A stretch of 64,000 nucleotides of DNA from an uncultured Gammaproteobacteria bacterium (GCA_964628835.1 CAZVME010000006.1:3580-67579), one strand, 5' to 3'; positions 4,276-37,258 are shown, counted from the first letter of the stretch. Translations and numbers: made by a program. The notes: generated by a model not told the origin, from the sequence alone.

Positions 4276-4773
4276 ATGGATCTTGAGGCAAAAGTGGTTC
4301 TGGCGCATCTGTTGAAGACACAACATGTGGCAGCATTTGGCACCATGTATGAAGGTCATCCTGAGGTCAGTATGGTGACCTACCTACCAGCCGCTGATTT
4401 CTCCAGGGTGTTCATACTTATCAGTGGCCTGGCGCGACATACTAAAAACATCCAGAAACATCCTGCGGTTGGTCTGATGGTCTGTGAGGAAGGCAGATCG
4501 GATAAAGACCCACAGACACTGGCGCGATTGTCCTTACAGGGAGTGGCTAGGGTGTTAGATCAGTCGGAGTCTGAGTACGCCAAGATCAAGGCTGGATACC
4601 TGGAGAAGTATCCTGATTCCAAGGCCAGTTTTGGTCTGGGGGATTTCAAGCTGTACGCTATCGAATTGGAACGGGCTCGTTTTGTGGCGGGCTTTGGCCG
4701 CATCTTCAACCTGACCAGGCAAGGTCTGGCAGAAGCCGAGGCGGCCCATGACCAGAGTATCGGTAATGCATGA
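4276..4773 (+). CDS. Pyridoxamine 5'-phosphate oxidase-like FMN-binding family protein
   Basis: 165 aa with a split-barrel-like pattern (VAAFGT...PEVSMVTY...ISGLARHTKN...PAVGLMV). A GGAGG-like Shine-Dalgarno sits upstream. Confidence 0.55.
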   Translation: MDLEAKVVLAHLLKTQHVAAFGTMYEGHPEVSMVTYLPAADFSRVFILISGLARHTKNIQKHPAVGLMVCEEGRSDKDPQTLARLSLQGVARVLDQSESEYAKIKAGYLEKYPDSKASFGLGDFKLYAIELERARFVAGFGRIFNLTRQGLAEAEAAHDQSIGNA

Positions 4774-4786
4774 TCAAATCTGATAT

Positions 4787-4806
4787 CCGCTTGTGGCCAC
4801 AAGCGG
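4787..4806. terminator. Perfect 20-bp palindrome between convergent genes; possible bidirectional terminator
   Basis: ccgcttgtgg/ccacaagcgg. There is no clean U-tract. Confidence 0.3.
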
Positions 4807-4932
4807 CCTGTTGGGTTTGCCCACATAGTAAACAGTTACGGCCCGGTTTTACGAACTACTCTCAACCGTGTCATGGACCAATAAAACCAACCATTAACTA
4901 GATGGCTGCGATGGCGAGGAACTATACAACCA

Positions 4933-5553
4933 TTAATTAGACTCTTCCTTTAATTCCTCCCCAATCTTGATCAATTCAGCAATATTATTCGCCCCCAACC
5001 TTTCCATCATCTTGGCTCTATGCACCTCCACAGTTCTTACAGATATATAGAGTGTCTCTGATATCTGCTTATTGGTGAGCCCCTTGGTTACCAGTTCAAA
5101 CAGTTGCTTTTCACGCTCGGTCAGTTCGTTAAACTGTTGCAGGTAGTTGTTGTGGAGGAATTTCCTAAGGCTACCTTGTTGGGCCTTTTCGATACTTGGG
5201 ACAAGCTCAGCAGCGTTTATCGGTTTTTGATGGAAGTCGCAGGCGCCTTCACGGAAGGCTTTGACCGCCATGGGTACATCACCATGACTGGTAAGAAACA
5301 TCACCTGGATGCAGGAGTGAGTGTCGTTTAATATTTCATGTACTTGTTGACCGCTCAGTCCTGGCATGCGGCTGTCGAGGATCAGGCAGCCAGGTGAGTT
5401 TAGGTCGACCTGTTCCAGAAACTGTTCACCGCTAGCGAAGTCCTGGACTGTGAATTTATACCCCTCCAGCACATAGCTCAGAGCTTCGCGCACCGAATCA
5501 TCATCATCGACGATATAGATTGGGACGGCCAACACTTCATTCACTTTTTTCAC
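4933..5553 (-). CDS. LuxR/FixJ-type response regulator (REC + HTH), TtrR-like
   Basis: The N-terminal receiver carries IYIVDDDDS...DSRMPG...K. The C-terminus carries LTEREKQLFELV..GLTNKQISETLYISVRTVEVHR. It overlaps the upstream kinase gene by 17 nt. Confidence 0.85.
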   Translation of the reverse strand: MKKVNEVLAVPIYIVDDDDSVREALSYVLEGYKFTVQDFASGEQFLEQVDLNSPGCLILDSRMPGLSGQQVHEILNDTHSCIQVMFLTSHGDVPMAVKAFREGACDFHQKPINAAELVPSIEKAQQGSLRKFLHNNYLQQFNELTEREKQLFELVTKGLTNKQISETLYISVRTVEVHRAKMMERLGANNIAELIKIGEELKEESN

Positions 5554-7330
5554 CTTTCAAGTGGCATATTACACGGGTGCCTTGCGTTTCAACGGGTTCC
5601 ATTTTAATGCTTCCATCGTGCGCTTCCATAATACGACGACAGATGGACATGCCCAGTCCAAAACCGTTGGGCTTGGTTGAGTGGAGGGGTTTAAACAGGC
5701 TCTCTGGATCTTGCTCACCCAGTCCATGCCCATTGTCTTCAATGCTGAGGGTAATATCGCCTTCGGACGTGCACTTAATGGTGATTATCAATTGTGGTTC
5801 ACTGGTATTTTGCAGTGCGTCAATACTATTGCGAACCAGATTGACTATTAGCTGCTGTATCTCAACAGGATCAACAGCAGCAATGATCGCCAAGTATGGC
5901 AGTTTAAGGGTTGGTTTGATGTTGTGCCGTTTGAACTCGTAGTCGAGCAAGTTGATGGTTTCGATAATCAGGGTGTTGAGGTTAGTAGGCTGCCGATTGA
6001 TATCCCCCTTTTTGGCAAACACTCGAATTCGTTCAATGATCTTTGCACCACGTTGAGCCTGGTTGCTGATTCTGCCTAACAGGCCTATGAGGTCGTGCTC
6101 GTCTAATTTTTCATCAATGCGGATGGAACCACCCTCGGCATAACTGTTGATCGCCGCCAGGGGTTGTTTCAGTTCGTGTGCCAAGTCGGATGAGAGTTCA
6201 CCCAGGATGGCAACCCGTTGCGCGTGTTCCAGCTGTTGTTGCTGATGATGCAGCTCTTCATTGATAGTTTCCAGTTCACAGGTTCGTCGGTTCATCAGGA
6301 TCTGCACCCAGAGATGGTGCAGGAAACCTAGCAGGATAAGGAAGAAGACCAGTGCACCCCAGGGCCAGTTGAGTTTCAGCCACTGGAGGGCAATTTGCCA
6401 CCAGGGTTCTTGCCAGGGGTGTATGTTTAGTCGTTGGTAAAGCTGATGGATATCCAGGCTGCTGACGGGAGCTGTCCATCCCAGTGAGCCAGCATTTATA
6501 GCGGCCTGGGAATCATTGGGCAGGGCGAGTAGGGCGTGGGCTACCTTTTCGGCGATGTCATCGGGAGTTTCTCGCAGCTTGGAAAAGGACCAGTTTGGAT
6601 AGAGAGTGGTACTTACCTGGCAGTCGTAACCTTTGTGTTGTTGCTGTTCCAGAATACGGTAGCGGTCACGATCAATCCGTCCCTCTTCAGCCATCGCTTC
6701 GAGCAGGCATGCCGGTAGTACCACGGCATCCACTTCGCTGTTGTCTAACCATTGGGTCAGCTGGTCCACAGGGAAGTTGGAAAAGCGAATGTCGGAGAAG
6801 AAGCGTGTGGGTTGATATCCACGGCTAACCATCTCTCCCCAATAGATCTGAAAGCCACCAAATGCCAGTGGGTCAACCGCACCTAACTTGCGTCCCTTTA
6901 ACGCTTTTAGCTCATAAACGGTTGAAGCTGAATTGACCACCAGTGCTGAACCGATCACTGGTCCCCGTCCTTTGTGGCGGCGGGATTTTAAAGTGGCCAG
7001 CCAACTGAGCCCGTATTTTGTGCCGAGCCTTACATACTGCCCGGCGTTGGTGATGGCAAAGTCGATATTGCCATCAATGACTACTTGGTCCAGTCCTTTG
7101 AGATTGTAGGGTATTGCCTTGAATCTATAACCTGGAATTGTCGCGCTCAGATACTGCATGGTTGCCGACCAGCGATCCACTGCCTTGGCATCTCCTCGAA
7201 AGGCCAGTACAGCCACTTTCAGTTCGGTCATGGTTTCTTGGGCCGGGAGTGGGGTGGTGCCCAGGATAGCTGATACGCCAATCAACAGAAATATGGCTTT
7301 TAGGGTTTTAAAGAAGGTGATTTGGTTCAT
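5537..7330 (-). CDS. Sensor histidine kinase with a periplasmic PhnD-type substrate-binding domain (TtrS-like architecture)
   Basis: Order of elements: signal/TM, PhnD-like domain (KVAVLAFRG...DFAITNAGQYV), TM, H-box (LAHELKQPLAAI), HATPase (DNGHGLG...GFGLGMSI). Confidence 0.8.
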   Translation of the reverse strand: MNQITFFKTLKAIFLLIGVSAILGTTPLPAQETMTELKVAVLAFRGDAKAVDRWSATMQYLSATIPGYRFKAIPYNLKGLDQVVIDGNIDFAITNAGQYVRLGTKYGLSWLATLKSRRHKGRGPVIGSALVVNSASTVYELKALKGRKLGAVDPLAFGGFQIYWGEMVSRGYQPTRFFSDIRFSNFPVDQLTQWLDNSEVDAVVLPACLLEAMAEEGRIDRDRYRILEQQQHKGYDCQVSTTLYPNWSFSKLRETPDDIAEKVAHALLALPNDSQAAINAGSLGWTAPVSSLDIHQLYQRLNIHPWQEPWWQIALQWLKLNWPWGALVFFLILLGFLHHLWVQILMNRRTCELETINEELHHQQQQLEHAQRVAILGELSSDLAHELKQPLAAINSYAEGGSIRIDEKLDEHDLIGLLGRISNQAQRGAKIIERIRVFAKKGDINRQPTNLNTLIIETINLLDYEFKRHNIKPTLKLPYLAIIAAVDPVEIQQLIVNLVRNSIDALQNTSEPQLIITIKCTSEGDITLSIEDNGHGLGEQDPESLFKPLHSTKPNGFGLGMSICRRIMEAHDGSIKMEPVETQGTRVICHLKGEKSE

Positions 7331-9007: not shown

Positions 9008-10411
9008 GTATAGGGAGAGTTATAACTGAATCTGGTGTTTGAGCAGTTGAATAAAAGCGGCGTATCTGGTTGATTTGATGTTACCAGACATTAAAGCAAC
9101 CAACAGAGGATACGCCACTATGAGTAAGAATAACGTTGTCGAATTCAAAGATCGAGACAGGATCACAGATGCATTGACAGAGATGTTGAGAACAGGCGCA
9201 CAGCAATTGATTCACCAGGCTGTACAGATGGAACTGGAAGAACTGTTGGAACACTATGCTGATCGTCTACTACCAAATGGCAAAGTGGCTGTTGTTCGCA
9301 ATGGTCATCTGCCTGAAAGAGAGATCCTGACAGGGATAGGCCCTGTGACAGTACGTATACCCAAGGTCAGATCCAAAACAGGGGAACCCATTACCTTTCG
9401 TTCTGCACTGGTGCCACCCTATGTGAGGAAAACCCGTACACTTGAAGCAGCCTTGCCGTGGCTTTATCTCAAAGGAGTTTCCACTGGTGAGATGGAAGAT
9501 GCCCTGAAGGTCTTGGTTGGTGCAGAGGCACAGGGGCTATCAGCCAGCACCATCTCACGTCTGAAGCAGGAATGGGGTCAGCAGTACCAGCAATGGCGCA
9601 CTACCCCGCTAGACAAAGACCACTGGGTCTACCTCTGGGCAGACGGCATCTATTCTGGCCTACGGACTGAAGACACTAAACTCTGTGCCCTGGTCATCAT
9701 TGGCGTCAATGCATGTGGTGAGAAGCACTTCCTGGCCATTGAGGATGGTATACGGGAATCCACCCAGAGTTGGCGGGAGGTTCTACTCAAGCTCAAAGCG
9801 CGTGGCATGAACACCGCAGAACTTGCTATTGGTGATGGTGCCATGGGTTTTTGGACAGCACTGGAAGAAGTCTATCCCAAGACTAATCATCAGCGCTGCT
9901 GGGTACACAAGACAGCAAATATCCTGAACTACCTGCCCAAGTCCTCTCAGACGAAGGCCAAGCAGGCCATCCACGAGATCTGGCAGGCAGAGACGAAGGA
10001 CAATGCGCACAAGGCATTTGATCTGTTCATACAAACCTATGAAGACAAATACCTAAAGGCTACCCAGTGTCTACAAAAGGATCGAGAAGCGTTACTGGCC
10101 TTTTATGATTTTCCTGCACAGCACTGGCAGAGCATACGCACCAGTAATCCGATTGAATCAACCTTTGCCACAATCTGTCATCGTACCAAGCGCAGCAAAG
10201 GCTGTCTGACCCGTGATGGTATGCTGCATATGATGTTCAAACTAGGTCATTGTGCCCAAGGGAAGTGGAGAAAATTAAGAGGCTTTGATTACCTTGCCAA
10301 GGTGATCAGGGGTGTTCAATTCAAAGATGGAATCGAGGTGCAATCAGATGACCAGATCGCCGCTTGATTTAATTGGACCAAACACCACTTTTGACAATAA
10401 CTCGTATAGGG
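9008..10411 (+). mobile_element. IS256-family insertion sequence; boundaries approximate
   Basis: A single transposase ORF is flanked by imperfect inverted repeats. Both ends contain GAGTTAT-N9-TGGTGTTTG in inverted orientation (about 9009-9041 and 10379-10411). I could not identify target-site duplications. Confidence 0.6.
9075..10367 (+). CDS. IS256/Mutator-family transposase
   Basis: Mutator signature (IGDGAMGFWTALEEVYPKTNHQRCWVHKTANIL) with DDE-type spacing. The true start may be MSKNNVVEF at 9120. Confidence 0.9.
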   Translation: MMLPDIKATNRGYATMSKNNVVEFKDRDRITDALTEMLRTGAQQLIHQAVQMELEELLEHYADRLLPNGKVAVVRNGHLPEREILTGIGPVTVRIPKVRSKTGEPITFRSALVPPYVRKTRTLEAALPWLYLKGVSTGEMEDALKVLVGAEAQGLSASTISRLKQEWGQQYQQWRTTPLDKDHWVYLWADGIYSGLRTEDTKLCALVIIGVNACGEKHFLAIEDGIRESTQSWREVLLKLKARGMNTAELAIGDGAMGFWTALEEVYPKTNHQRCWVHKTANILNYLPKSSQTKAKQAIHEIWQAETKDNAHKAFDLFIQTYEDKYLKATQCLQKDREALLAFYDFPAQHWQSIRTSNPIESTFATICHRTKRSKGCLTRDGMLHMMFKLGHCAQGKWRKLRGFDYLAKVIRGVQFKDGIEVQSDDQIAA

Positions 10412-10860: not shown

Positions 10861-11031
10861 AGGGTTGTGAAGGCTGCAAAGGGTGCAATAACCAACGGTA
10901 TTGCACCTTACATCAAATAGAATACGGTATTGTCTAACGGTATAATCTGATTTGATCGGCGCAACACCCTTCGGCTATCGTAGCCCTGTCGGGCCACAAT
11001 AATGTCATTCCTTCAAGATAAGTGGCTAATC

Positions 11032-11547
11032 TTAGAATACCGGAACCAGATGGTAACCCTGCTCTTGATAGCCGATGAGTGAAATAAAGCCATCACCTAC
11101 CAATGTAAGACCGGAATGAATGGTGCTGTTATTAATGCCAAATGCTTTTGTTGCAATAATGCAGATCTCTTGCCTTATACCTAGTGCCGCCAATGCTTCG
11201 ATGTTGGACTCAATATCCAGCAATAGTCCTGCTGCATCCTCTTCTGTTTGAGCTGATGGTTCTGATGTCAGGTACTTTACACTAGGGCCAATGTAAACCA
11301 TGACAAAGTCAGGCGTCACACCCTGGTCTTTCATAGTTTTGTGTGTTCCCTGAATCCCTTGAAGATAGAAATTTAATTTCTTTGCATCTCCAATATCTAC
11401 CAGGAAAACGCTTTTTCCAACTTTCATGTCGGCTATGGCGACGCTATCGTTGATCCCGTTTTGAGATGCATATGCCACAGTATGTAAAAAAATGAGTAGC
11501 AAACAGGAGAGTGATTTAACGATGGAGTGTTTCATATTCTTTCTCAC
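11032..11547 (-). CDS. Exported DsrE/DsrF-like family protein
   Basis: It has a signal peptide. The body resembles DsrE/F-like (COG1416-type) proteins. It is the last gene of the TetR-DsrE-TusA cluster. Confidence 0.45.
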   Translation of the reverse strand: MRKNMKHSIVKSLSCLLLIFLHTVAYASQNGINDSVAIADMKVGKSVFLVDIGDAKKLNFYLQGIQGTHKTMKDQGVTPDFVMVYIGPSVKYLTSEPSAQTEEDAAGLLLDIESNIEALAALGIRQEICIIATKAFGINNSTIHSGLTLVGDGFISLIGYQEQGYHLVPVF

Positions 11548-11551
11548 AAAA

Positions 11552-11986
11552 TTATTGGGTTTGTATTTTCTCTAGGTCGACGAGGGAACAGCTGGTTTTT
11601 CGTGTCGACTTACATTCCTCATCTCCCGGGAACAAATCAAATGAACAGCTTTTATTCTGTAACATTATCCAATCTTCCTTGGAGTAGGCATTATGGGGAA
11701 GGTTTGCAGGGAAGTAGACGCACCCCCCACAGACATCTTTGGTTGCATCATACTTTTTGACATAGTAGGTGAAAGAATTATCTTGTTCGTTAGACGCAAT
11801 AAGTTCGTTCCCTGTACGCTTACACCAGGAGGGGATATCAAGCTGAGTTCCAGGATCTGTAGCAATGATCTGCAGTACATTACCTTCAATTAATTTTTTG
11901 ACTGTTTTGTTTGTCTCCACCATGGGCATTGGGCAACATTTACCGCTGGTGTCTAAGACCTTTGTCACTTCAATTCGGTCATTCAT
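11552..11986 (-). CDS. TusA/SirA-family sulfurtransferase with a Cys-rich C-terminal extension
   Basis: The N-terminal ~75 aa carry the TusA signature (LDTSGKCCPMPMV, CPxP). They are followed by ~65 extra residues with CGGC and further Cys. Confidence 0.65.
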   Translation of the reverse strand: MNDRIEVTKVLDTSGKCCPMPMVETNKTVKKLIEGNVLQIIATDPGTQLDIPSWCKRTGNELIASNEQDNSFTYYVKKYDATKDVCGGCVYFPANLPHNAYSKEDWIMLQNKSCSFDLFPGDEECKSTRKTSCSLVDLEKIQTQ

Positions 11987-11999
11987 GATTTAATTTCCT

Positions 12000-12416
12000 T
12001 TAGAAGTATTGATAGTGATCTGCACTAATCATATGCTCGTTCAGGAACCATGAAGCACCGACAATTCCTTCTGCCTCTGGAATCAGGTTGTCCTTTCTCA
12101 CGTCAAAAATATTGGCTGCCAGGCTACAGGCATAATAGCGAACGTCACCGGTCTCTTTAATAGCCCTGAGCAGAGTATTGATATCATTAGGCAGGCCGGC
12201 ATCGGCTACACGCCCCCGCACCCATGCATCTTTATCTGCGTGGTTACCACCAACTACTATTTGCTTTGCACCCTCTTTGGTCAGCGCCCGTACCGCCCAG
12301 TTTACAAACAGAATTTCAACTTCGGCCCCCTCAGATGCTTCTAAATAGGCAAATGCCAGTGGGGTCAGAATTTTGTCATACTCATCATCACGAATAACAA
12401 TGGCTAGTTTTTTCAT
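12000..12416 (-). CDS. DsrE/DsrF/DrsH-like family protein
   Basis: 138 aa: MKKLAIVI...PLAFA...VEILFVNWAVRAL...YYACSLAANIF. This is the typical DsrE-fold pattern. Confidence 0.55.
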   Translation of the reverse strand: MKKLAIVIRDDEYDKILTPLAFAYLEASEGAEVEILFVNWAVRALTKEGAKQIVVGGNHADKDAWVRGRVADAGLPNDINTLLRAIKETGDVRYYACSLAANIFDVRKDNLIPEAEGIVGASWFLNEHMISADHYQYF

Positions 12417-29957: not shown

Positions 29958-30025
29958 TACCTCCCCCCGGCGACAGAAGGCTGATTCAGGATGTATCTGT
30001 AGGCCAATTTGTTGTGAGGTTGTTT

Positions 30026-30053
30026 AGAGCCACTTCTTAGTGGCTCTTTTTTT
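30026..30053 (+). terminator. Rho-independent terminator
   Basis: agagccac-ttct-tagtggctct followed by T7. Confidence 0.75.
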
Positions 30054-30138
30054 GTACGCGCTTAAGCGTGCGTGTAAGGGTAATCAATAGGTCGGCGGTA
30101 TCCGATTTCAGGAATTAATCAGAGATGATCTGGGTTAA

Positions 30139-30846
30139 TTATTTTGCTAATACACGAAGTGAATAGCCGCCCAATACCCGTACTGTTAAATCTTTATTTG
30201 CCAAAAAGGCAAGCTTCCTGGGTAATTTTAATAGTTTAGCCTTCCATCTTAGGTTTGGTAATTCCAGAGAGGTTCCTGTGTAAAAATAATCAAGAACCTC
30301 ATATCCAGTATCTTTTAGAGTTTCCAGTGCTGTTTCCTTTGTAAAATAGTGGATATGTCCGGCTATTTTCTTGCTCTGATAATTGGAGAAGAACGAAGAA
30401 TAGTTTGAATTGATAAATCAAGTGGGATATGGAATACCTTGTATTCTGCCTTTTTTTTCAACTTTGTTAGAAAGCCAAAATAGTCTTCAGCGTGCTCAAA
30501 AAACATCAATTGCCATTACAATATCAAAATGTTCATCAGAGTCCTCAAGTAGATTGGAAAGTTTAAAGGATAGATTGTCCTTGGTCTTCGTGCTGCATAG
30601 TTTAAATGCTTGAGGTGAGATTTCGTATCCGACAAATTCCACATCGTCAGTATAGTGCTCTGACAGCTGCTTGAGTATTTCTCCAGCCCCACATCCAATC
30701 TCACAAATTCTATTTGGAATCAGAGAGTTATTTTCGATTATGTTTTTTATTTGCCTGGCCTTCCACGGCGAGTCAGCTTCATGCCATGAAGGATTATTTA
30801 CAAGATATGTTCCGTCTTCGTAGATTTGTTTCATCTGGTATTCCAT
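30139..30846 (-). pseudogene. Class I SAM-dependent methyltransferase disrupted by two compensating frameshifts
   Basis: The annotated ORF ends at AIDVF* in a T6 run. The homologous reading continues in the +1 frame (EHAEDYFGFLTKLKKKAEYKVFHIPLDLS...). It then returns to the original frame (KIAGHIHYFTKETALETLKDTGYEVLDYFYTG...VLAK*). SAM motif EIGCGAGE is present. Confidence 0.6.
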
Positions 30847-30980
30847 ATTATTTTACGCATAACGATTGTAGCAGGCGCGTTATGGAATCTAGCTGTAGGT
30901 GAAATAAAATAAACATCGATCTGGCTGTTTTTGTTAAGGCCTTTGTTTGAGGTTAGCGAAGGTCACGCTTAAATGACCTG

Positions 30981-31376
30981 TTAGGCATCTGGCTTTAAAG
31001 CGTCTAATTTATTGCTACGATATAACCACCAAAACCCAGCAAACAAAGCGAACCATACTCCGGTTCGTAAAGACATAGCGCGAAGGCTTTCAACAGCAAT
31101 AGAGTTACCCTCTGTGTATAGAAAGAAGATTGCTGTCAGCATGGTGAGGTTGAGAACAAATATAGTAGCTGCGACATACATGCCTTGTTTGATGTTGCGC
31201 CATGCGATGATACCTGCTGCGACATAAACAATACCCATTGCTGCGTTATAGATTAGTAGCGGTCGGAAAACGATATACCCCGGATTTGACCCTAGAAGGA
31301 CACGAGTGCCTGCAAAAATGGTTAAAAGACCAAATAATACAGCTACAGTTACCAATATGTTTTGGGTGATTCTCAT
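30981..31376 (-). CDS. Small four-TM membrane protein, unknown function (cassette ORF)
   Basis: Four hydrophobic spans. The stop TAA lies inside GCCTAAC. Confidence 0.5.
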   Translation of the reverse strand: MRITQNILVTVAVLFGLLTIFAGTRVLLGSNPGYIVFRPLLIYNAAMGIVYVAAGIIAWRNIKQGMYVAATIFVLNLTMLTAIFFLYTEGNSIAVESLRAMSLRTGVWFALFAGFWWLYRSNKLDALKPDA

Positions 31377-31414
31377 TTATCAAGGTATCTAGTGAGTGAT
31401 CTATTTATTGAGGT

Positions 31415-31481
31415 GCTTAACGACTAAGCTTACAGGGATAGGCGCGTTAGCGCTAAAGTCCTGGATGAGCGTAATGTTATG
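31415..31481 (-). repeat. attC-like recombination site (67 bp)
   Basis: Minus strand reads GCATAAC-ATTAC-GCTCATCCAGGA...TCCCTGTAAGC-TTAGTC-GTTAAGC. This gives 5-nt and 6-nt spacers and one extra base in the left inner arm, as in canonical attC. Confidence 0.55.
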
Positions 31482-31491
31482 CATTACTTTA

Positions 31492-32175
31492 TTATGGTGT
31501 ATCACCATATATCTCCAGCATATCAGGTCGTTCAGTAAAATAATAATGAACCCAAATATAAACATGGTTGAATAGTGCCGCTAAAATTGCCGCTTTCGAT
31601 AGAAGTAATAATCCAGGCAAATAAAGGATCATTAGGCCAAATACGTACATCCCGTTATCAGTATATTTAAATATCCCTTTTTTTACATAGGGCTCATTGT
31701 AGTGTTTATCGAAATGATCAATTCCATATGCTCTTTTAATAGTGAAGTAATTTTTTACCGAGTAAAAAAGGAATATTACTAGAGGTGTTATTAGTACTGC
31801 TAAAGCATAACTGAGCATCGGATTTATATTTAGAGTGCCTTTACTACTATACGCCAGAATGATTATTGTAATCAGCCGGCTTATAAATAGTAATGAAAAC
31901 CCTGTGGCATATATTTTAAACGACAGATTTAGGCCATAGCGTTTTGTGAATGTTCTTTGGTAAAGCTCAAGCCGCCAGACACCCCAAACATAAACTTGAT
32001 GAATAATGGGAATTGCAATTGCCAACCAGAACCATGTTTTTGTAGTTAAACCCCATAAATTTCCGCTTAATATCTCAGTGTCATTGTTTAGATATAAGTT
32101 GATGGCAAAGATTATGATTATTAATGAGATGAAGTGCCATATTTGGTATTTAAATATTTTTCTAGTTTCGCTCAT
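31492..32175 (-). CDS. Polytopic membrane protein with an ICMT/PEMT-like methyltransferase C-terminus (cassette ORF)
   Basis: The C-terminal KGIFKYTDNGMYVFGLMILY... resembles the G.Y...RHP.Y.G block of isoprenylcysteine/phospholipid methyltransferases, with RHP replaced. Confidence 0.4.
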   Translation of the reverse strand: MSETRKIFKYQIWHFISLIIIIFAINLYLNNDTEILSGNLWGLTTKTWFWLAIAIPIIHQVYVWGVWRLELYQRTFTKRYGLNLSFKIYATGFSLLFISRLITIIILAYSSKGTLNINPMLSYALAVLITPLVIFLFYSVKNYFTIKRAYGIDHFDKHYNEPYVKKGIFKYTDNGMYVFGLMILYLPGLLLLSKAAILAALFNHVYIWVHYYFTERPDMLEIYGDTP

Positions 32176-32205
32176 GTTTCAAATATATTGCCTATTTGAA
32201 ATAGT

Positions 32206-32243
32206 CGGAATTATGTAGCAGTTGCAACTGCTACATAATTCCG
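32206..32243. repeat. 38-bp perfect palindrome flanked by 8-bp direct repeats
   Basis: cggaattatgtagcagttg/caactgctacataattccg was verified base by base. GAAATAGT occurs at 32198-32205 and at 32244-32251. Confidence 0.85.
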
Positions 32244-32342
32244 GAAATAGTGATTAGTAGTGTAAGTTAAAACAGCCATAGCAGTTAAGGGTTATTTGTC
32301 CCGCTTGAACGCTTGTTATGCACTGTCCCCACTTTTTAATAA

Positions 32343-33068
32343 TTATTCTTTCGTTATCTTTGCATCTTCTAGCAGAACAGGATAAAAATAGCCGTAGCTA
32401 TAATCCTTATCCAGTGTAAGTTTGCCTTCAACGACAACTATGTCATCAATAGCCACTGTGCTATCCGTGGTGACGGTCAGATCATCCGCAGTACTACTGT
32501 CTTTTATATGTAGCCAGTTTTTTCCCATTACTTTGGCGGTGTATCGAGTGACCTTGCCTCGTAGACGTATTGTTTTTCCGCTGAGCTTTTGTTTTTGAGC
32601 ATGGATCTCAGCGATAGTATGGCCCTGTTTTACTTTATGAATGCCTGTAACAGGTTTGGCTGCTTGTTTCTGTTTGATCTGGCTGTGCGCTGAAGCCATT
32701 CCTCCAGCATTGCTCGCCGAAGATTTTTTACCAGTGATATAACCGCCTACAAAATAGATAATGGGAAAATCACGCTTCATGGATTTACTATGGAAATTTT
32801 CCATGGGTGTCTCTGTTGAAAAGCCGATCATATCGCCGATTTTAAGAGGGGTGTTTGGCCCGGCGGCCCACACTTTCTTTTTGCCCGTATCAATCTCGGC
32901 ATAAGTGTAACCGGAGTTCTTTAAAATCTCCGTTACCTTGCCGTGAATTGTGTTTGGGGTGGTGTTCTGTTCCGCATAGGCAGAATTGATTGTGCCTGCA
33001 CTGAAAAGAACGAAAGAAAAACAGCTAAACAGTATTAATAAAAAATTAGTACGATGTCTCATAATCAT
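32343..33068 (-). CDS. Exported protein of unknown function (cassette ORF)
   Basis: Signal peptide, then two similar beta-rich modules (GKVTEILKNSGYTYAEID... and GKVTRYTAKVMGKNWLHIKD...). Confidence 0.5.
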   Translation of the reverse strand: MIMRHRTNFLLILFSCFSFVLFSAGTINSAYAEQNTTPNTIHGKVTEILKNSGYTYAEIDTGKKKVWAAGPNTPLKIGDMIGFSTETPMENFHSKSMKRDFPIIYFVGGYITGKKSSASNAGGMASAHSQIKQKQAAKPVTGIHKVKQGHTIAEIHAQKQKLSGKTIRLRGKVTRYTAKVMGKNWLHIKDSSTADDLTVTTDSTVAIDDIVVVEGKLTLDKDYSYGYFYPVLLEDAKITKE

Positions 33069-33861
33069 ATTGCTCTCAGTTTAATTATTTGCTCATAACG
33101 TCTCGTATAACCGGCTAGCACCTGAAAACCCGCTTGACACTAGAAAGGCAACGACTAATAGCAGAGCAAAAAAAAACGCCGTTGTTAGCAATTCCGCGTT
33201 CATGCGTTTGTTAGGCAACTTACGGTACCACAGTTTTTCAGAAGAAATGTTGCTTGACCGATCATGCGCTACCTGGCATTCATTGTGAATGACATTTCTC
33301 ACTATGAACTCTTCGCGCGCGCGCACTTAAGATGGAACTACAGATACTTCGGCAACAATACCACTGAATTCTTCGCCTTGCGGTATCACATAGAATCCCA
33401 AAAACCAGTAACACAAGCCGCGAACAGGCTCAGAAATTATTTCCGGGCCACTACCAAAGTCGATCGCTGCGTCAGGGGACATGATTTGATAATCGTGAAT
33501 CCAGCCTCACCGATCTGCTTTATCAGTGAACCCAGCACACGGAATTTTACTATTTGGATCGAACAGCAGAAGGTTCAGAACGAACAACGCTCCGAATAAC
33601 TGGGGGATTACCAGAGTTGGAGAATTTGTCATCCCGGCGATGGTCCAGGCCCACGGCCCCACAGGTGTTCAGCAGGGCCTCCAGATGGTCGGGTACTGTG
33701 CCGCGGTGGCCGGAACCTCCTCGATCTATTTCTCCGAATCCCCCAAAATGGCGAACAATCCAAACTGGACGGCGGTGGGCACCACCTGTACCTGCAACGG
33801 TGCCATTAATATATCGGAAATGCTCAAAGTCATGACTATGTAGCTACTCCTTTTCATGTTT

Positions 33862-33954
33862 GTATAACGTTTTGCCTAGGGGCGCGGAGCCGTGCAGCGG
33901 TGGGGCATTCCAGTGAGTGAATGCGAACGATTTGAGCTACTTATTATGTTAGTA
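33862..33954 (-). repeat. attC-like site, partly degenerate
   Basis: Minus strand reads TACTAAC...AAGTAGCTC...CTAGGCAAAAC-GTTATAC. It shares the AAGTAGCTC, TCGCATT and CTAGGCA blocks with the site at 35428-35498. Confidence 0.4.
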
Positions 33955-34195
33955 CTATTAATTTTGTTAAATATGGCAAAGTACACAAAACTGCGCCTAT
34001 TTGTAAGGCTCTGCCCAGCTTGGATAGCTCTGGGTAATGTTCTTTTATTTCTTTATTAAATGGCCAGAATTGTATTGATGGCGGACGTTTATTTGTTTGT
34101 GCTTCATATGTGTGAAGAACAAATATACTTAGAAACAGCAAAATCGTTCCAAGTACGAAAGCTATATTTACACTTAAATTAATTAGAAATTCCAT
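33944..34195 (-). CDS. Small two-TM membrane protein (cassette ORF)
   Basis: 83 aa with two hydrophobic spans. Its stop lies next to TACTAAC. Confidence 0.4.
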   Translation of the reverse strand: MEFLINLSVNIAFVLGTILLFLSIFVLHTYEAQTNKRPPSIQFWPFNKEIKEHYPELSKLGRALQIGAVLCTLPYLTKLIVLT

Positions 34196-34213
34196 TTATC
34201 TATTTGTATAAAG

Positions 34214-34420
34214 CTATGTTAAAGGGTGTTGACGCGACAGCATCCAAGTGAGCGTAGCGAACGGCTTGAACAACTTGTTGGGTGCAGGTTTCGATGCCAA
34301 TATCACGCTATTGAACAACTGCTGATGATTGGTATTTATTTGAATGAAGCTCGCACGGAGGAACGCTAGAGCATATTCACGAAATGCTTTTAATTCTATT
34401 AAATCGGCTTTAACTTCCAT
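34214..34420 (-). CDS. Small hypothetical protein whose 3' end reads through an attC-like sequence
   Basis: The start is taken at MEVKADL, with AAGGA 7 nt upstream. The C-terminal APNKLFKP is encoded by ACCCAACAAGTTGTTCAAGCCG. Confidence 0.3.
   Translation of the reverse strand: MEVKADLIELKAFREYALAFLRASFIQINTNHQQLFNSVILASKPAPNKLFKPFATLTWMLSRQHPLT
34215..34283 (-). repeat. Partial attC-like site; the left half is canonical and the right half is not
   Basis: Minus strand reads ACCCAAC-AAGTT-GTTCAAGCC-GTTCGCTACGC.... No GTTRRRY partner was found. Confidence 0.35.
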
Positions 34421-34530
34421 GATGTTCCTTGCCTTATTATTTTTATTTGCAACGCGAACCACGAAAGAACGTTGCACTTTCGTTCAGGTATTTTAGACAG
34501 CTCTGCTGAACAACGACCTGGCTACGCTTG

Positions 34531-35421
34531 TTAAGTGTTGATACCCCATAGTTCAAGCCTTGACTCTATATATTTACGCAACAATGAATATTTGAAAGCT
34601 ACCTTCGAATTCTTATTTTCCTGGAACTGTTTCGAAGATTCAAGAACGAATGCATATGCTCGGCGAACTAACTCTTGACCATCATCAAAAGCCTCCATTT
34701 CGCGTCGCATTGCCGGCCCGATAAAATCAATAAACGGGTAGCCATCATCGTCAATAGCTAAAAATTCCATACTGTGCTTCGCCAGTTCCTTTGAGACTTG
34801 TGAGACTTCATCTGTTTCAGTACATTCTGCCAAGTACTGTAGGTACGACTGTAGCTCCCCACCTACTACCACTCGTGGGTAATTTGCTACGTGTGACTCG
34901 AGCGCATATGCACGAGCTAGCGCCGCACCATAAATGTCATTGTGCTTGACCTCAATACCGATTCCAATATCGATACCACCACGAATGGGATGGCCAGAAG
35001 CGAGGGAGGTTAACGACGTAGCTGCCGTGGCTCCAATAATCGCGTAAATACCACTAATAGGTAGCTTGGCACCTCGATCCGCTCGTAAGGACAAAAAAGC
35101 AACCACGAAGTCCGAGAATTGATGAAATCGTATCGGGTTAGATACTAACTCTTTAAAAATCTGTTTCTTCTCGTTCGGCAGGCCTTTTGGCGGTGTGCGC
35201 TTCTTTTCAAAATTGCCAAAGAATTTGTTGAAAGAAGAACGCATCGACTTCACGGCACCGTAAGTATTCTTTAGTGCCTGAACGAACTTCTCATGTTCTT
35301 CGGTGTTTTTAGAATCAGGTAGACTTTTGAGAGCTCGCAGCTGCTCCTGTTGCCCCATTAAATCGATGAAGGCTACTGCGTAGTAACTCGAATCAATGCG
35401 TTTATGTTTCTTCCGTGCCAT
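34531..35421 (-). CDS. Hypothetical protein with a nucleotidyl-cyclase-like (class III cyclase / palm) motif set
   Basis: AVAFIDLMG, FSDFVVAFL, IRGGIDIGIG and DIYGAALARAYALES occur in the order expected for cyclase homology domains. The stop TAA lies inside ACTTAAC. Confidence 0.5.
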   Translation of the reverse strand: MARKKHKRIDSSYYAVAFIDLMGQQEQLRALKSLPDSKNTEEHEKFVQALKNTYGAVKSMRSSFNKFFGNFEKKRTPPKGLPNEKKQIFKELVSNPIRFHQFSDFVVAFLSLRADRGAKLPISGIYAIIGATAATSLTSLASGHPIRGGIDIGIGIEVKHNDIYGAALARAYALESHVANYPRVVVGGELQSYLQYLAECTETDEVSQVSKELAKHSMEFLAIDDDGYPFIDFIGPAMRREMEAFDDGQELVRRAYAFVLESSKQFQENKNSKVAFKYSLLRKYIESRLELWGINT

Positions 35422-35427
35422 TTGTAC

Positions 35428-35498
35428 ACTTAATGCCTAGCTCACCGGAAAAATGCGAGCGCAGCGAGTATTTTGTCCGGCGGAGCTACTTGTTAGGG
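35428..35498 (-). repeat. attC-like recombination site (71 bp); the best example in the array
   Basis: Minus strand reads CCCTAAC-AAGTA-GCTCCGCCGG...CCGGTGAGC-TAGGCA-TTAAGT. It has 5-nt/6-nt spacers and an extra base in the left inner arm. Confidence 0.6.
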
Positions 35499-36019
35499 CC
35501 ATCATCGCTATTCCATGAAGCCTTTGTGAACTTCCCAGTACCTTTGGTTAGATTTTTTCTTTCAATCATTTTAGATTTAAATTGAAATTCTTCGCTTATT
35601 CTGACGATCAGTAACTTATTAAAATTGCCAGCTCGCTTAACTTGAACGGTATCACTAGACTTCATGGGGCTAATGGTCTTGATTTCGAAAAAATCATTGC
35701 CCATTCGCCCGTCTGAACCAGGGGTGTTGGGCTTGTGTCTCTTTATTCCATATTTAATTTCGCCATAAAGTTCACCTAGTTCGCCGTATATTGGCAGATG
35801 GCGTCCTGTCGTTTCTAAGTAGTTTTTTGCTGCCTCGATCATCTTAGCCAATAACTCCCAGAGTTGGAGTGTCGATGGCGGTAGTGATTCTCCGAGAATT
35901 TCATCATCAGGTTCCCAACTATCGTCGTCATCAATGTAATTCTCAATGAGATCCCAACTAGTCCATTCGCCATCTTCGTAAATTCCGTTTACCCAGTTGA
36001 TCCGTTCTTCTTCAAACAT
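35486..36019 (-). CDS. Hypothetical protein with a PD-(D/E)xK-like motif and a very acidic N-terminus
   Basis: GELGE...GSDGRMGNDFFEIKT (D...ExK). The C-terminal GPNK* is encoded by CCCTAACAAGTAG. The start is taken at MFEEER, because the upstream extension of the ORF is covered by a hairpin. Confidence 0.45.
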   Translation of the reverse strand: MFEEERINWVNGIYEDGEWTSWDLIENYIDDDDSWEPDDEILGESLPPSTLQLWELLAKMIEAAKNYLETTGRHLPIYGELGELYGEIKYGIKRHKPNTPGSDGRMGNDFFEIKTISPMKSSDTVQVKRAGNFNKLLIVRISEEFQFKSKMIERKNLTKGTGKFTKASWNSDDGPNK

Positions 36020-36544
36020 CGTTGAATCCAATTTTTGCCATAACAGTGATATAGACAGACTCTCTGCATATCGAAATAGGCAGAGTCTATATAACACGAT
36101 TCGTAATTGTCTGGTTTCGTGTGATTTATTGGTGTGGTTTGGCAATGCCTTGCCTGGTTTGAGCGGGGGATAAAGCAGTGGGGTATTTTTGGTGCTGGTT
36201 GGTCGTTGAGTAACATAACCGTTTTTACATCCTTGATATTTTTATTTTATCCCAGCCTCATGCAACTACGCATTGCAATTTATATTCAGAGCTTACCTTA
36301 GTATTTGAGAGGTAGTCAAATATCCGGTTTTGTGATGAAAATCTGAATATATCTAATTACAAAAAGGGGAATAGGTCCGGTTCAATGTGCCATTAATATG
36401 GCGGGGTAGATAAACATGCGTGGGTTGAACGGATGCTGATAATGCTCTGTCTTGCGCGAGGAGCCAATCTTGGTTAGAGCGCAGCTGTTTCTATGATTAA
36501 GAGTTGGTTTTCGCGGGCGCGATTTTATGGTTTTAATATGAGGG

Positions 36545-37105
36545 TTATTTAACCGGTGTAATTCTTACCAAAGCACCCATGATCGGGTGGTCAATGTAGT
36601 GGAGTACTCCACTACGCATGCGGCGGTGGGCCTGCATGCGGAAGTAGCCGGGGGCAGGGCCGTTGCTGGTTTCCAGCAGTAGATCCAGGTCCAGGTGCAG
36701 GTAACGTTTGACGCTTACCTTTGCTGTGCCGGTAACATTGCCGGTTTTGGTTTTGCCTGATACGTGGATGGGGGTGGCGTTGCTCCTGCTCACTGCCGGT
36801 TGTCTCCATAGCATGTGGGTCAGCCTGACCGGTTTGCCACTGGCGCGGCGCATGCGCTTGGCTACATTGACCAGGGTGCGCTTTGAGTTGGGGAGTCTGG
36901 AGTAGAGTCCCTTTTTGCTGGCGAGGTGGGTTGCGTTATGCAGGTCTGGTTTTCCTGGGTCTTCGGGCCAGGACTCATTCATGGCAGCGGCCCGTGAGGT
37001 GCGTTCGAATATGACCAGTTCCACGTCGTACTTGGATGCGGCCAGCAGGTTTCCGGCGATCAGTAGGCCTGCGCTTAGCAGAAGCAGTTTTAGAATTGTT
37101 CTCAT
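36545..37105 (-). CDS. CsiV-family-like periplasmic protein
   Basis: Signal peptide, YDVELVIFER near the N-terminus and LHYIDHPIMGALVRITP at the C-terminus. Confidence 0.5.
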   Translation of the reverse strand: MRTILKLLLLSAGLLIAGNLLAASKYDVELVIFERTSRAAAMNESWPEDPGKPDLHNATHLASKKGLYSRLPNSKRTLVNVAKRMRRASGKPVRLTHMLWRQPAVSRSNATPIHVSGKTKTGNVTGTAKVSVKRYLHLDLDLLLETSNGPAPGYFRMQAHRRMRSGVLHYIDHPIMGALVRITPVK

Positions 37106-37258
37106 ATGAGGTTCGCCCTGGTGCTTAACATCCATGGTTCTATTGTTTCCCACTCCAGAGAAAAAATCGAGTGGTTATTGATTGAATCCCGGTAAACCAC
37201 CGCCTCGGGCGGTGAAATACTAAAAGGCGTTGCCGTTCCTGCGCACAGTGCAGGGGGA

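Follow-up and report, generated by a model that had tools for sequence, protein, structure and literature searches.

Introduction

Integron cassettes are excised by recombination between two attC sites, the integrase gene (intI) normally directly adjoins the first cassette of an array, and attI sequences are not conserved across integron classes. The integrase (IntI) binds the folded bottom strand of attC, reads its extrahelical bases and cuts at the AAC core (PMC3053210), and cassettes are inserted at attI or, less specifically, at genomic sites (attG) for which a short GWT motif is all that is needed (bioRxiv 10.1101/2022.09.11.507474). The attG route has also been proposed as the source of small attC clusters devoid of an integron-integrase (CALINs) that have neither intI pseudogenes nor flanking transposons (bioRxiv 10.1101/2022.09.11.507474). 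CALINs as a class were delimited by attC matches at E<1 lying <4 kb apart on one strand, with no intI nearby (Cury et al. 2016, PMC4889954). We have analysed a 64,000-nucleotide stretch of DNA from an uncultured Gammaproteobacteria bacterium (GCA_964628835.1, CAZVME010000006.1:3580-67579; the whole stretch is hereafter called the window), and conclude that the AT-rich island at 30056-36544 on its minus strand is very probably such a CALIN, i.e., a partly decayed integron cassette cluster without an integrase, in a Sedimenticolaceae-like gammaproteobacterium.

A first-pass annotation, made from the sequence alone, had read the island as an integron cassette array with no integrase in sight. This reading is supported here, and the class name CALIN is added to it (Cury et al. 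2016, PMC4889954). The main value of the result is confirmatory, in that a degenerate cassette array was recognised from sequence alone while its class is already described and common. Comparison with intact homologues further shows how attC sites decay while the cargo remains intact, through changes at the crossover G, in the AAC core and in L-box pairs, and through replacement of an entire R' box. One site, carried by a relative of sulfur bacteria, is 88-93% identical to clinical estX and environmental attC sites and bears on the origin of the attC sites of resistance cassettes, and one cargo gene belongs to an apparently unannotated family, with a predicted class III cyclase fold, that travels as an integron cassette.

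Recognition of attC sites by a covariance model

Rfam holds no attC family, and a scan with Rfam gave no gathering-level match in the window and, at E<=1 in the island, only a sub-threshold small-RNA match over the terminator at its edge. A covariance model was built from sites of other organisms. About 90 loci reached through homologues of gene B, one of the cargo genes described below, provided 25 clear attC sites that were aligned with MAFFT as a seed; the first structural scans in Python, which combined AAC...GTT pairs with constrained DNA folding, were too strict and missed real sites, and served only for this collection. RNAalifold predicted no structure on the seed alignment owing to register shifts, and the R-box, L-box and inner-stem structure was entered by hand, leaving 70% of cells paired as against 59% in shuffles and 28-48% when the structure was slid along the alignment. 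This first model (R1) found 54 sites in 560 kb of gene-B-homologue loci, all on the strand of the cassette genes, and these 54 sites of unrelated arrays made up the second model (R2). The window sequence is absent from both.

As a positive control, R2 recovered ten attC sites of two clinical class 1 integrons at 28.6-55.9 bits, including those of the aadA1, aadA2, cmlA1, cmlA5, dfrA14, arr-2, estX and qacL cassettes, with a sole off-target match of 16.7 bits. The attC sites of a Pseudomonas chromosomal integron, a family outside the training set, scored 18-25 bits. In the negative control, 86 kb of Sedimenticolaceae relatives, noise did not exceed 13.2 bits and only two sites were found (35.8 and 20.6 bits), both in the related genome L003 discussed below, and the opposite (plus) strand of the island, with the same composition, gave nothing above 7.5 bits.

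When both strands of the window were searched with R2 and filters off (128 kb searched), the top three matches of the 64 kb were all coding-strand spacers of the island, 2.2 and 1.6 kb apart: attC_E (33216-33093, minus strand; 29.1 bits, E 2.5e-4), the best in the window, attC_H (31482-31415, minus; 21.8 bits, E 0.011) and attC_A (35498-35428, minus; 21.5 bits, E 0.013). For the island alone, the E-values of attC_A and attC_H are ~1e-3. These two had been singled out in the first-pass annotation as canonical attC sites, with a covariance-model search as the check to make; they are matched by the model, but the R' box of 35428-35498 proved to be ATTAAGT, not GTT. The third site lies in the spacer 33069-33200, which had been set aside as not folding cleanly; its interior indeed does not fold (-7.1 kcal/mol, z +2.3), yet it holds the best match of all. 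Two weaker matches were returned, a truncated remnant after gene B (34536-34508, minus; 14.0 bits, E 0.71) and a match outside the island, upstream of a cytochrome c gene (16874-16831, minus; 16.3 bits, E 0.22), which was dismissed as noise, being comparable to the 16.7-bit off-target match of the control. The motif YYWAACAAR shows no enrichment, with 13 occurrences window-wide against 8 expected, 8 of the 13 on the minus strand of the island. With three sites at E<1, less than 4 kb apart, on the minus strand and with no intI, the island is a CALIN by the published criteria (PMC4889954).

Homology and decay of individual sites

The clearest comparison is that of attC_A (35428-35498), which is 93% identical over 70 nt to the attC that adjoins an integrase and follows a homologue of gene A in another array (L103), and, over 60 nt, 88% identical to the estX cassette's attC in a Klebsiella class 1 integron (L099; CP094890.1, 4865-4935). 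The R' core is GTT in both relatives (GTTAAGG in L103) and ATTAAGT in the window. In L103 the site reaches 36.2 bits and, with the R box paired, a fold of -15.2 kcal/mol (z -4.1), and attC_A folds at -12.3 kcal/mol (z -1.6) with its R box open and, relative to the estX attC, a broken base pair in the L box. This comparison is direct evidence that attC_A is a damaged derivative. It is also a possible lead on an environmental source of the estX attC family. The 5' boundary of cassette A is marked by an R'-type box, GTTATGG (36038-36044, minus), and the homologous position in L103, beside intI, and in L093 reads G-TTAGGGCAAAA.

Two further sites belong to the family found in a Pseudomonas integron (L095). 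attC_C (34206-34283, minus) starts ACCCAAC-AAGTT-GTTCAAGCC, the left half that had been noted beforehand and that was found at 34283. Although it reaches only 8.9 bits, it is a full-length homologue of a Pseudomonas-type attC, aligning with the L095 sites end-to-end (BLAST 91% over 33 nt, E 8e-8; local-alignment z 15.5 against shuffles). Its central stem is lost, and its R' box is TTTATAC where GTTAGGC is expected, i.e., GTT has become TTT. attC_D (33862-33949, minus) aligns to the same family with z 7.7 (0/300 shuffles as good) and has an intact R' box, GTTATAC, a changed R'' box, ACATAAT (AAC to AAT), and no single-hairpin fold. The blocks AAGTAGCTC and CTAGGCA, reported earlier as shared by two sites, are present at 35498 (attC_A) and 33949 (attC_D), and the window attC sites fall into at least two sequence families.

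The sites in which neither core is altered are attC_E (33093-33216; GCCTAAC...GTTATGA), whose 68-nt interior is non-palindromic, and attC_H (31415-31482; GCATAAC...GTTAAGC), whose fold (-10.8 kcal/mol, z -2.25) has the R box paired. attC_A (ATT), attC_C (TTT) and attC_D (AAT) each have a single mutated core, and R' is gone after gene G.

The remaining spacers are more degraded. After gene B only R boxes are left (34508-34536, minus), and the homologous B cassette in L009/L013 has a full 81-nt attC starting ACTTAACAAG. The site after gene G, attC_G (32278-32321, minus), has R'', L'' and L' (GCATAAC AAGC GTTCAAGCGGGAC...CCCTTAAC) without R'; the model matches its R'' box only (8.8 bits), and its similarity to the L095 sites is weak (z 3.0). 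Within the stretch that replaces the R' box ahead of cassette H lies a perfect 38-bp palindrome, CGGAATTATGTAGCAGTTGCAACTGCTACATAATTCCG, with centre GTTGCAAC (32206-32243; inverted repeat of 19+19 nt, 100% complementary), where the homologous boundary in a metagenome array (L106) is GTTATGT. This palindrome may be what an element targeting the attC site left behind. After gene I there is a degenerate attC (30857-30986, minus) with two R''-type boxes, GCCTAAC over the gene I stop and CCTTAAC, together with GTTATGC; it scores 8.5 bits on R boxes only, its left half is 78% identical to the gene B remnant, and it aligns to the L095 sites with z 4.2.

The overlap of genes and sites was largely as first described: the stop codon of gene I falls within GCCTAAC, that of gene B within ACTTAAC and that of gene A within CCCTAAC-AAGTAG. 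Two reading frames had been said to end in the attC-encoded peptide PNK, which is true of open reading frame (ORF) A, but in ORF C PNK stands ~20 codons ahead of the stop.

Together these comparisons show that five spacers are attC sites or clear attC descendants; as a control, 200 random pieces taken outside the island matched the attC collection only by chance, over 12 nt. The partial decay that had been suspected can now be specified base by base. The array is decaying: core triplets are mutated in three sites, an R' box is replaced, a further site is truncated, hairpins are weak and one cargo gene is frameshifted, and most sites in the window carry changes that should disable recombination.

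An ordinary horizontally acquired island, in which the palindromes are terminators or repetitive extragenic palindromic (REP)-like repeats that resemble attC by chance, would accommodate the weak hairpins and the several spacers that the model does not detect, and AT-rich DNA abounds in TAAC and GTTA strings. No comparable model match occurs, however, on the other strand of the island or elsewhere in 150 kb of related DNA, the sites are homologous over their full length to attC sites that adjoin integrases or belong to a class 1 integron, and random pieces yield nothing beyond the 12-nt matches just mentioned. Terminators are not abundant either, with a single terminator-like site in the island (31049-31067, minus, inside gene I) against 5.7 expected in shuffles of the scanned region. 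We therefore consider chance resemblance highly improbable, and it was rejected given the class 1 control and the attC homology of the sites.

Limits, composition and absence of the island in relatives

The island, with about nine cassettes, lies between the stop codon of csiV and the terminator of a lipoprotein gene. csiV (36545-37153, minus; Pfam PF10972, E 7e-30), followed by mfd, is the core flanking gene and is co-oriented with the array, and the distal edge is formed by the terminator hairpin of the lipoprotein gene (30026-30047, plus), identified by a terminator scan and kept right after csiV in four relatives. A search with the CsiV protein, taking one genome per species, led to seven loci in metagenome-assembled genomes of Sedimenticolaceae and Chromatiales, and the pairing of csiV with mfd is kept in all of them. 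Four (L004-L007; csiV 73-74% identical, mfd ~80% or more) have no island: the hairpin AAAAAAAGAGCCAC...GTGGCTCT stands 10-130 bp past the csiV stop and is followed by the lipoprotein, ypsA and dedA-merA genes. Because this hairpin, which directly trails csiV in L004-L007, has its equivalent at ~30026-30055 in the window, the limits of the island are 30056-36544, and by comparison with these relatives the segment is a foreign insertion. The gene order of the island is not core genome, since these four relatives have csiV directly before the lipoprotein terminator.

Composition agrees with these limits, as do the PF10972 match and the terminator, so that the AT-rich island first placed at 30055-36540, between the lipoprotein terminator and csiV/mfd, stands. 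The GC content is 0.412 in the island and 0.519 in the remaining window, with a profile of 0.34-0.46 across 30000-36500 and 0.50-0.61 on either side. At third codon positions (GC3) the island ORFs range from 0.23 to 0.48, as against 0.62-0.73 for csiV, mfd, ypsA and dedA-merA; the lipoprotein gene beside the island has a GC3 of 0.47. All plausible island ORFs are on the minus strand, as had been stated. A tRNA-gene origin of the island was excluded, the window holding zero tRNA genes.

Between csiV and cassette A lies a non-coding leader (36045-36544, minus) without any ORF that has homologues and with model scores of at most 6.5 bits. It contains a hairpin (36049-36092; -12.7 kcal/mol, z -2.95), cannot be aligned with the leaders of the related loci L003 and L002, and, like these, gave no BLAST match to 63 attC sites. 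The leader could consist of older decayed cassettes or be a docking site of another kind.

Search for an integrase

Four integrases (those of L012, L095 and L103, and IntI1) were used as tblastn queries against the 64 kb, with no match at E<=1, and no recombinase domain was found in a Pfam scan of ten mid-size window ORFs, whose domains are unrelated; the earlier statement that the window has no intI is thus borne out. There is no intI at the head of the array, where csiV occupies the position expected for it. Promoter-like sites are not enriched (15 against 15.9 expected). At a distance of 20 kb from the island there is an intact Mutator-family transposase gene (9075-10367; PF00872, E 3e-68).

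The window shows 64 kb of a ~71-kb contig, which leaves room for a complete integron of which the island would be the distal end, its integrase gene falling just beyond the window. Against this, no integrase was found in the 30 kb beyond the lipoprotein edge or in the 27 kb towards csiV-mfd, the usual place of an integron integrase being directly beside the first cassette, and at either end the array runs into core genes whose synteny is shared with relatives, namely csiV-mfd at one end and the lipoprotein gene, ypsA and dedA-merA at the other. Because both array edges touch core genes, an integrase just outside the array is excluded, and we give almost no credence to one just beyond the window.

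The csiV 3' end in related genomes

Among the relatives, arrays at the csiV locus were found in the window and in L003, and none in L002 or L004-L007. In L003, a Chromatiales metagenome-assembled genome with a CsiV 84% identical, a different AT-rich array (L003 4573-5958; GC 0.356 versus 0.531) begins at the same base-pair position after csiV, in the same orientation and, like that of the window, with no integrase nearby. It has attC sites at 5235-5303 and 5784-5873, one very clean (35.8 bits, -21.5 kcal/mol, z -7.7) and the second at 20.6 bits, and the contig ends inside the array; the island proteins have no match in L003. L002, in which csiV is 88% identical, has a GNAT gene and non-cassette genes at the locus and no attC. 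Past the csiV stop, only the first few bases are conserved among the window, L003 and L002, and no attI-like sequence is shared. The two arrays could represent an inherited array with turnover, or a hotspot.

These observations raise the question of whether the locus is still in use. If the integrase were elsewhere in the genome, the island could be a live cassette reservoir at a conserved docking locus that works as a split integron. In favour of this are the different array at exactly the csiV 3' end in L003, with its very clean attC and no counterpart of the island proteins, the two sites of the window (attC_E and attC_H) that retain both cores, and the fact that half of known CALINs are in IntI-encoding replicons (PMC4889954). 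On the other hand, most window sites carry disabling changes, no attI-like sequence is conserved past csiV among the window, L003 and L002, the locus in L002 is occupied by non-cassette genes without attC, and no integrase was located in the 64-kb window. We regard a working split integron as rather unlikely. It appears less likely still, though not to the point of being negligible, that, within one lineage of Sedimenticolaceae, the csiV 3' end serves as a docking place for cassettes, either recurrent or inherited. If it did, cassettes would be captured by a trans-acting integrase at a place in the chromosome other than a known attI and away from intI, and the locus would amount to a natural split integron, or to an attG hotspot growing into a full array.

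Several points weigh against the decayed CALIN that we prefer. The integrase search covers the 64-kb window, the rest of the genome lying outside it. The attC scores of the window, 21-29 bits, are at the low end of the range of true sites, and R2 is a home-built model, not the attc_4 of IntegronFinder, with rough E-values. Four spacers, those after genes B, G, I and J, are recognisable only through R-type boxes or left halves. Hairpin energies are weak, at -7 to -12 kcal/mol, where intact attC homologues fold at -15 to -21.5 kcal/mol (z -2.6 to -7.7), and the top-scoring site, attC_E, folds worse than shuffled sequence. The ~500-bp leader is not accounted for, and the sequence is probably a metagenome-assembled contig, of which an independent assembly confirms only part (L001, 3.9 kb).

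Cargo genes

Homologues of genes A and B are cassettes beside IntI in L095, L103 and L012, all with PF13495+PF00589 integrases. Gene A (35486-36019, minus; 177 aa) is intact, has no assigned function and ends with its stop codon inside CCCTAAC-AAGTAG. Its 942 homologues, 50-75% identical, are spread over numerous genera of gammaproteobacteria, the majority on contigs of very small size. In the Pseudomonas integron L095, where the integrase has 55.7% identity to IntI1, such a homologue forms the fifth cassette, and in L103 another forms the first, adjoining the integrase. In L097 (1-5725, 8001-8519), the homologue is cargo of a Tn7-like transposon (tnsA, tnsB, tniB/tnsC-like, tniQ/tnsD) and has a weak attC-like site (16.1 bits) ahead of it; here a mobile element of another kind would be carrying a cassette.

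Gene B (34531-35421, minus; 296 aa) is intact and has 86 homologues, the closest of which is 81% identical and has a clean attC on either side (L009/L013). It has no match in Pfam, NCBIfam or PADLOC, and none in a profile search against PDB sequences. Its AlphaFold model (predicted local distance difference test, pLDDT, 88.5) points to a class III nucleotidyl-cyclase-like fold: in a Foldseek search against the PDB, the best 50 of 478 matches consist wholly of class III cyclases and cyclase-like proteins (lowest E 3.8e-4; highest TM-score on the target 0.62). The invariant residues D20, S103-D104 and R147-G-G-I-D would fit a catalytic site, and gene B appears to represent an unannotated, cassette-borne family of cyclase-like proteins.

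A homologue of gene B is found in L012 (a 4.16-Mb genome), within an array headed by an IntI with the IntI-specific insertion. This complete integron also contains a ~170-bp GC-rich repeat, GATGGCACGGACGCTAYGCGCCGTGCCATCGGCCCCGCG...GGGGCCGTTAGC, in four copies (~4700-4880, 9810-9980, 11010-11180 and 11885-12050). The first copy lies between intI and the first cassette and the other three at the 3' end of an attC-like left half, each copy providing the final GTTRRR box; the repeat may represent either a long form of attC or a small element lodged at R'.

Gene H (31492-32175, minus; 227 aa) is intact and encodes a membrane methyltransferase like phosphatidylethanolamine N-methyltransferase (PEMT; Pfam PF04191, E 1.3e-8). 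It has 1918 homologues at 65-91% identity, and its DNA is 90% identical to part of the metagenome array L106, which has attC sites and an IS110-family transposase gene; another homologue has an ordinary chromosomal neighbourhood. Genes A, B and H match their homologues in length and for this reason look intact, although the recombination sites decay.

The other cassettes are less readily interpreted. ORF C (34214-34420, minus; 68 aa) reads through its own attC and is of uncertain coding status; it is called as a gene on the independently assembled Logan contig L001 and has no family match. ORF D (33944-34195, minus; 83 aa) appears in the ORF list as a hydrophobic protein with no family match. 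The body of cassette E (33217-33861, minus), with a GC content of ~0.5, has no convincing ORF: those on the minus strand are only 43-51 aa, the plus strand has two overlapping ORFs of 105-111 aa, and none of these has a family match. The DNA of this body has no match elsewhere, and it may represent a gene that is dead or reversed. The idea that this GC-richer cassette holds the remnant of a group II intron was considered and is not supported by an Rfam search. Gene G (32343-33068, minus; 241 aa) has a signal-peptide-like N-terminus and no significant family match, and gene I (30981-31376, minus; 131 aa), with its stop inside GCCTAAC, encodes a predicted membrane protein with no family match. 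Gene J (30139-30846, minus) is a pseudogene of a class I S-adenosylmethionine (SAM)-dependent methyltransferase with two frameshifts: its first 116 aa match Pfam Methyltransf_12/31/25, and the sequence continues in frame 0 and then in frame 2.

For A, B, C, D, G, H and I, no functional name came from NCBIfam or PADLOC, and no resistance or known defence function was found in the island cargo with Pfam, NCBIfam and PADLOC. None of the other island proteins was found in the ~100 fetched loci.

Proposed history and present state

The cassettes would have been brought in by an integron integrase acting at the conserved AAC/GTT core of folded attC, the unit being one short gene with an attC-type site, present about nine times in the same orientation. 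The array may have arisen by loss of intI, or by insertion at a secondary site followed by attC x attC additions. We infer that it is now largely frozen, a fossil or nearly so. Since only attC_E and attC_H keep both cores, the G-H segment between them could at most still be excisable, given an integrase in trans. Genes A, B and H, being full length relative to their homologues, may still be expressed. The proximal genes are probably expressed by read-through from csiV, because no terminator-like site was found from csiV to the array and the usual csiV terminator is now 6.5 kb downstream.

Comparison with known systems

The island is most like the CALINs of Cury et al. (PMC4889954). Its three model matches, 2.2 and 1.6 kb apart, and two sites recognised by homology are on one strand, there is no intI or intI pseudogene within 10 kb, the cargo is almost wholly without known function and free of resistance genes, and the number of sites is near the reported average of about five attC sites. 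It differs in that most of its sites are visibly degenerate, and in having been found with a home-built covariance model instead of that of IntegronFinder.

Decaying sedentary chromosomal integrons, such as those of Xanthomonas (bioRxiv 10.1101/2025.06.18.660453) and the Pseudomonas integron L095, likewise have a chromosomal array at a fixed locus with core-gene flanks, made of small genes that are AT-rich, co-oriented and promoterless. The L095 sites are of one sequence family with attC_C and attC_D, and a related genome, L003, has a different array at the same locus. In contrast to these integrons, the window array has no adjoining integrase gene or pseudogene, and its attC sites are of several families rather than of one homogeneous host family.

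Insertions at attG and single attC sites lacking integron-integrases (SALINs), described by Loot and co-workers (bioRxiv 10.1101/2022.09.11.507474), share with the island the presence of cassettes in the chromosome outside an integron platform, and, as in the small CALINs ascribed to this route, the window has neither an intI pseudogene nor flanking transposons. It has, however, about nine cassettes instead of one or two, and the original junction is no longer readable. Finally, attC_A has the length and the predicted hairpin of the attC found with estX in resistance integrons of classes 1 and 2, but it accompanies a different cargo gene and has ATT in place of GTT at the crossover and a broken L-box pair.

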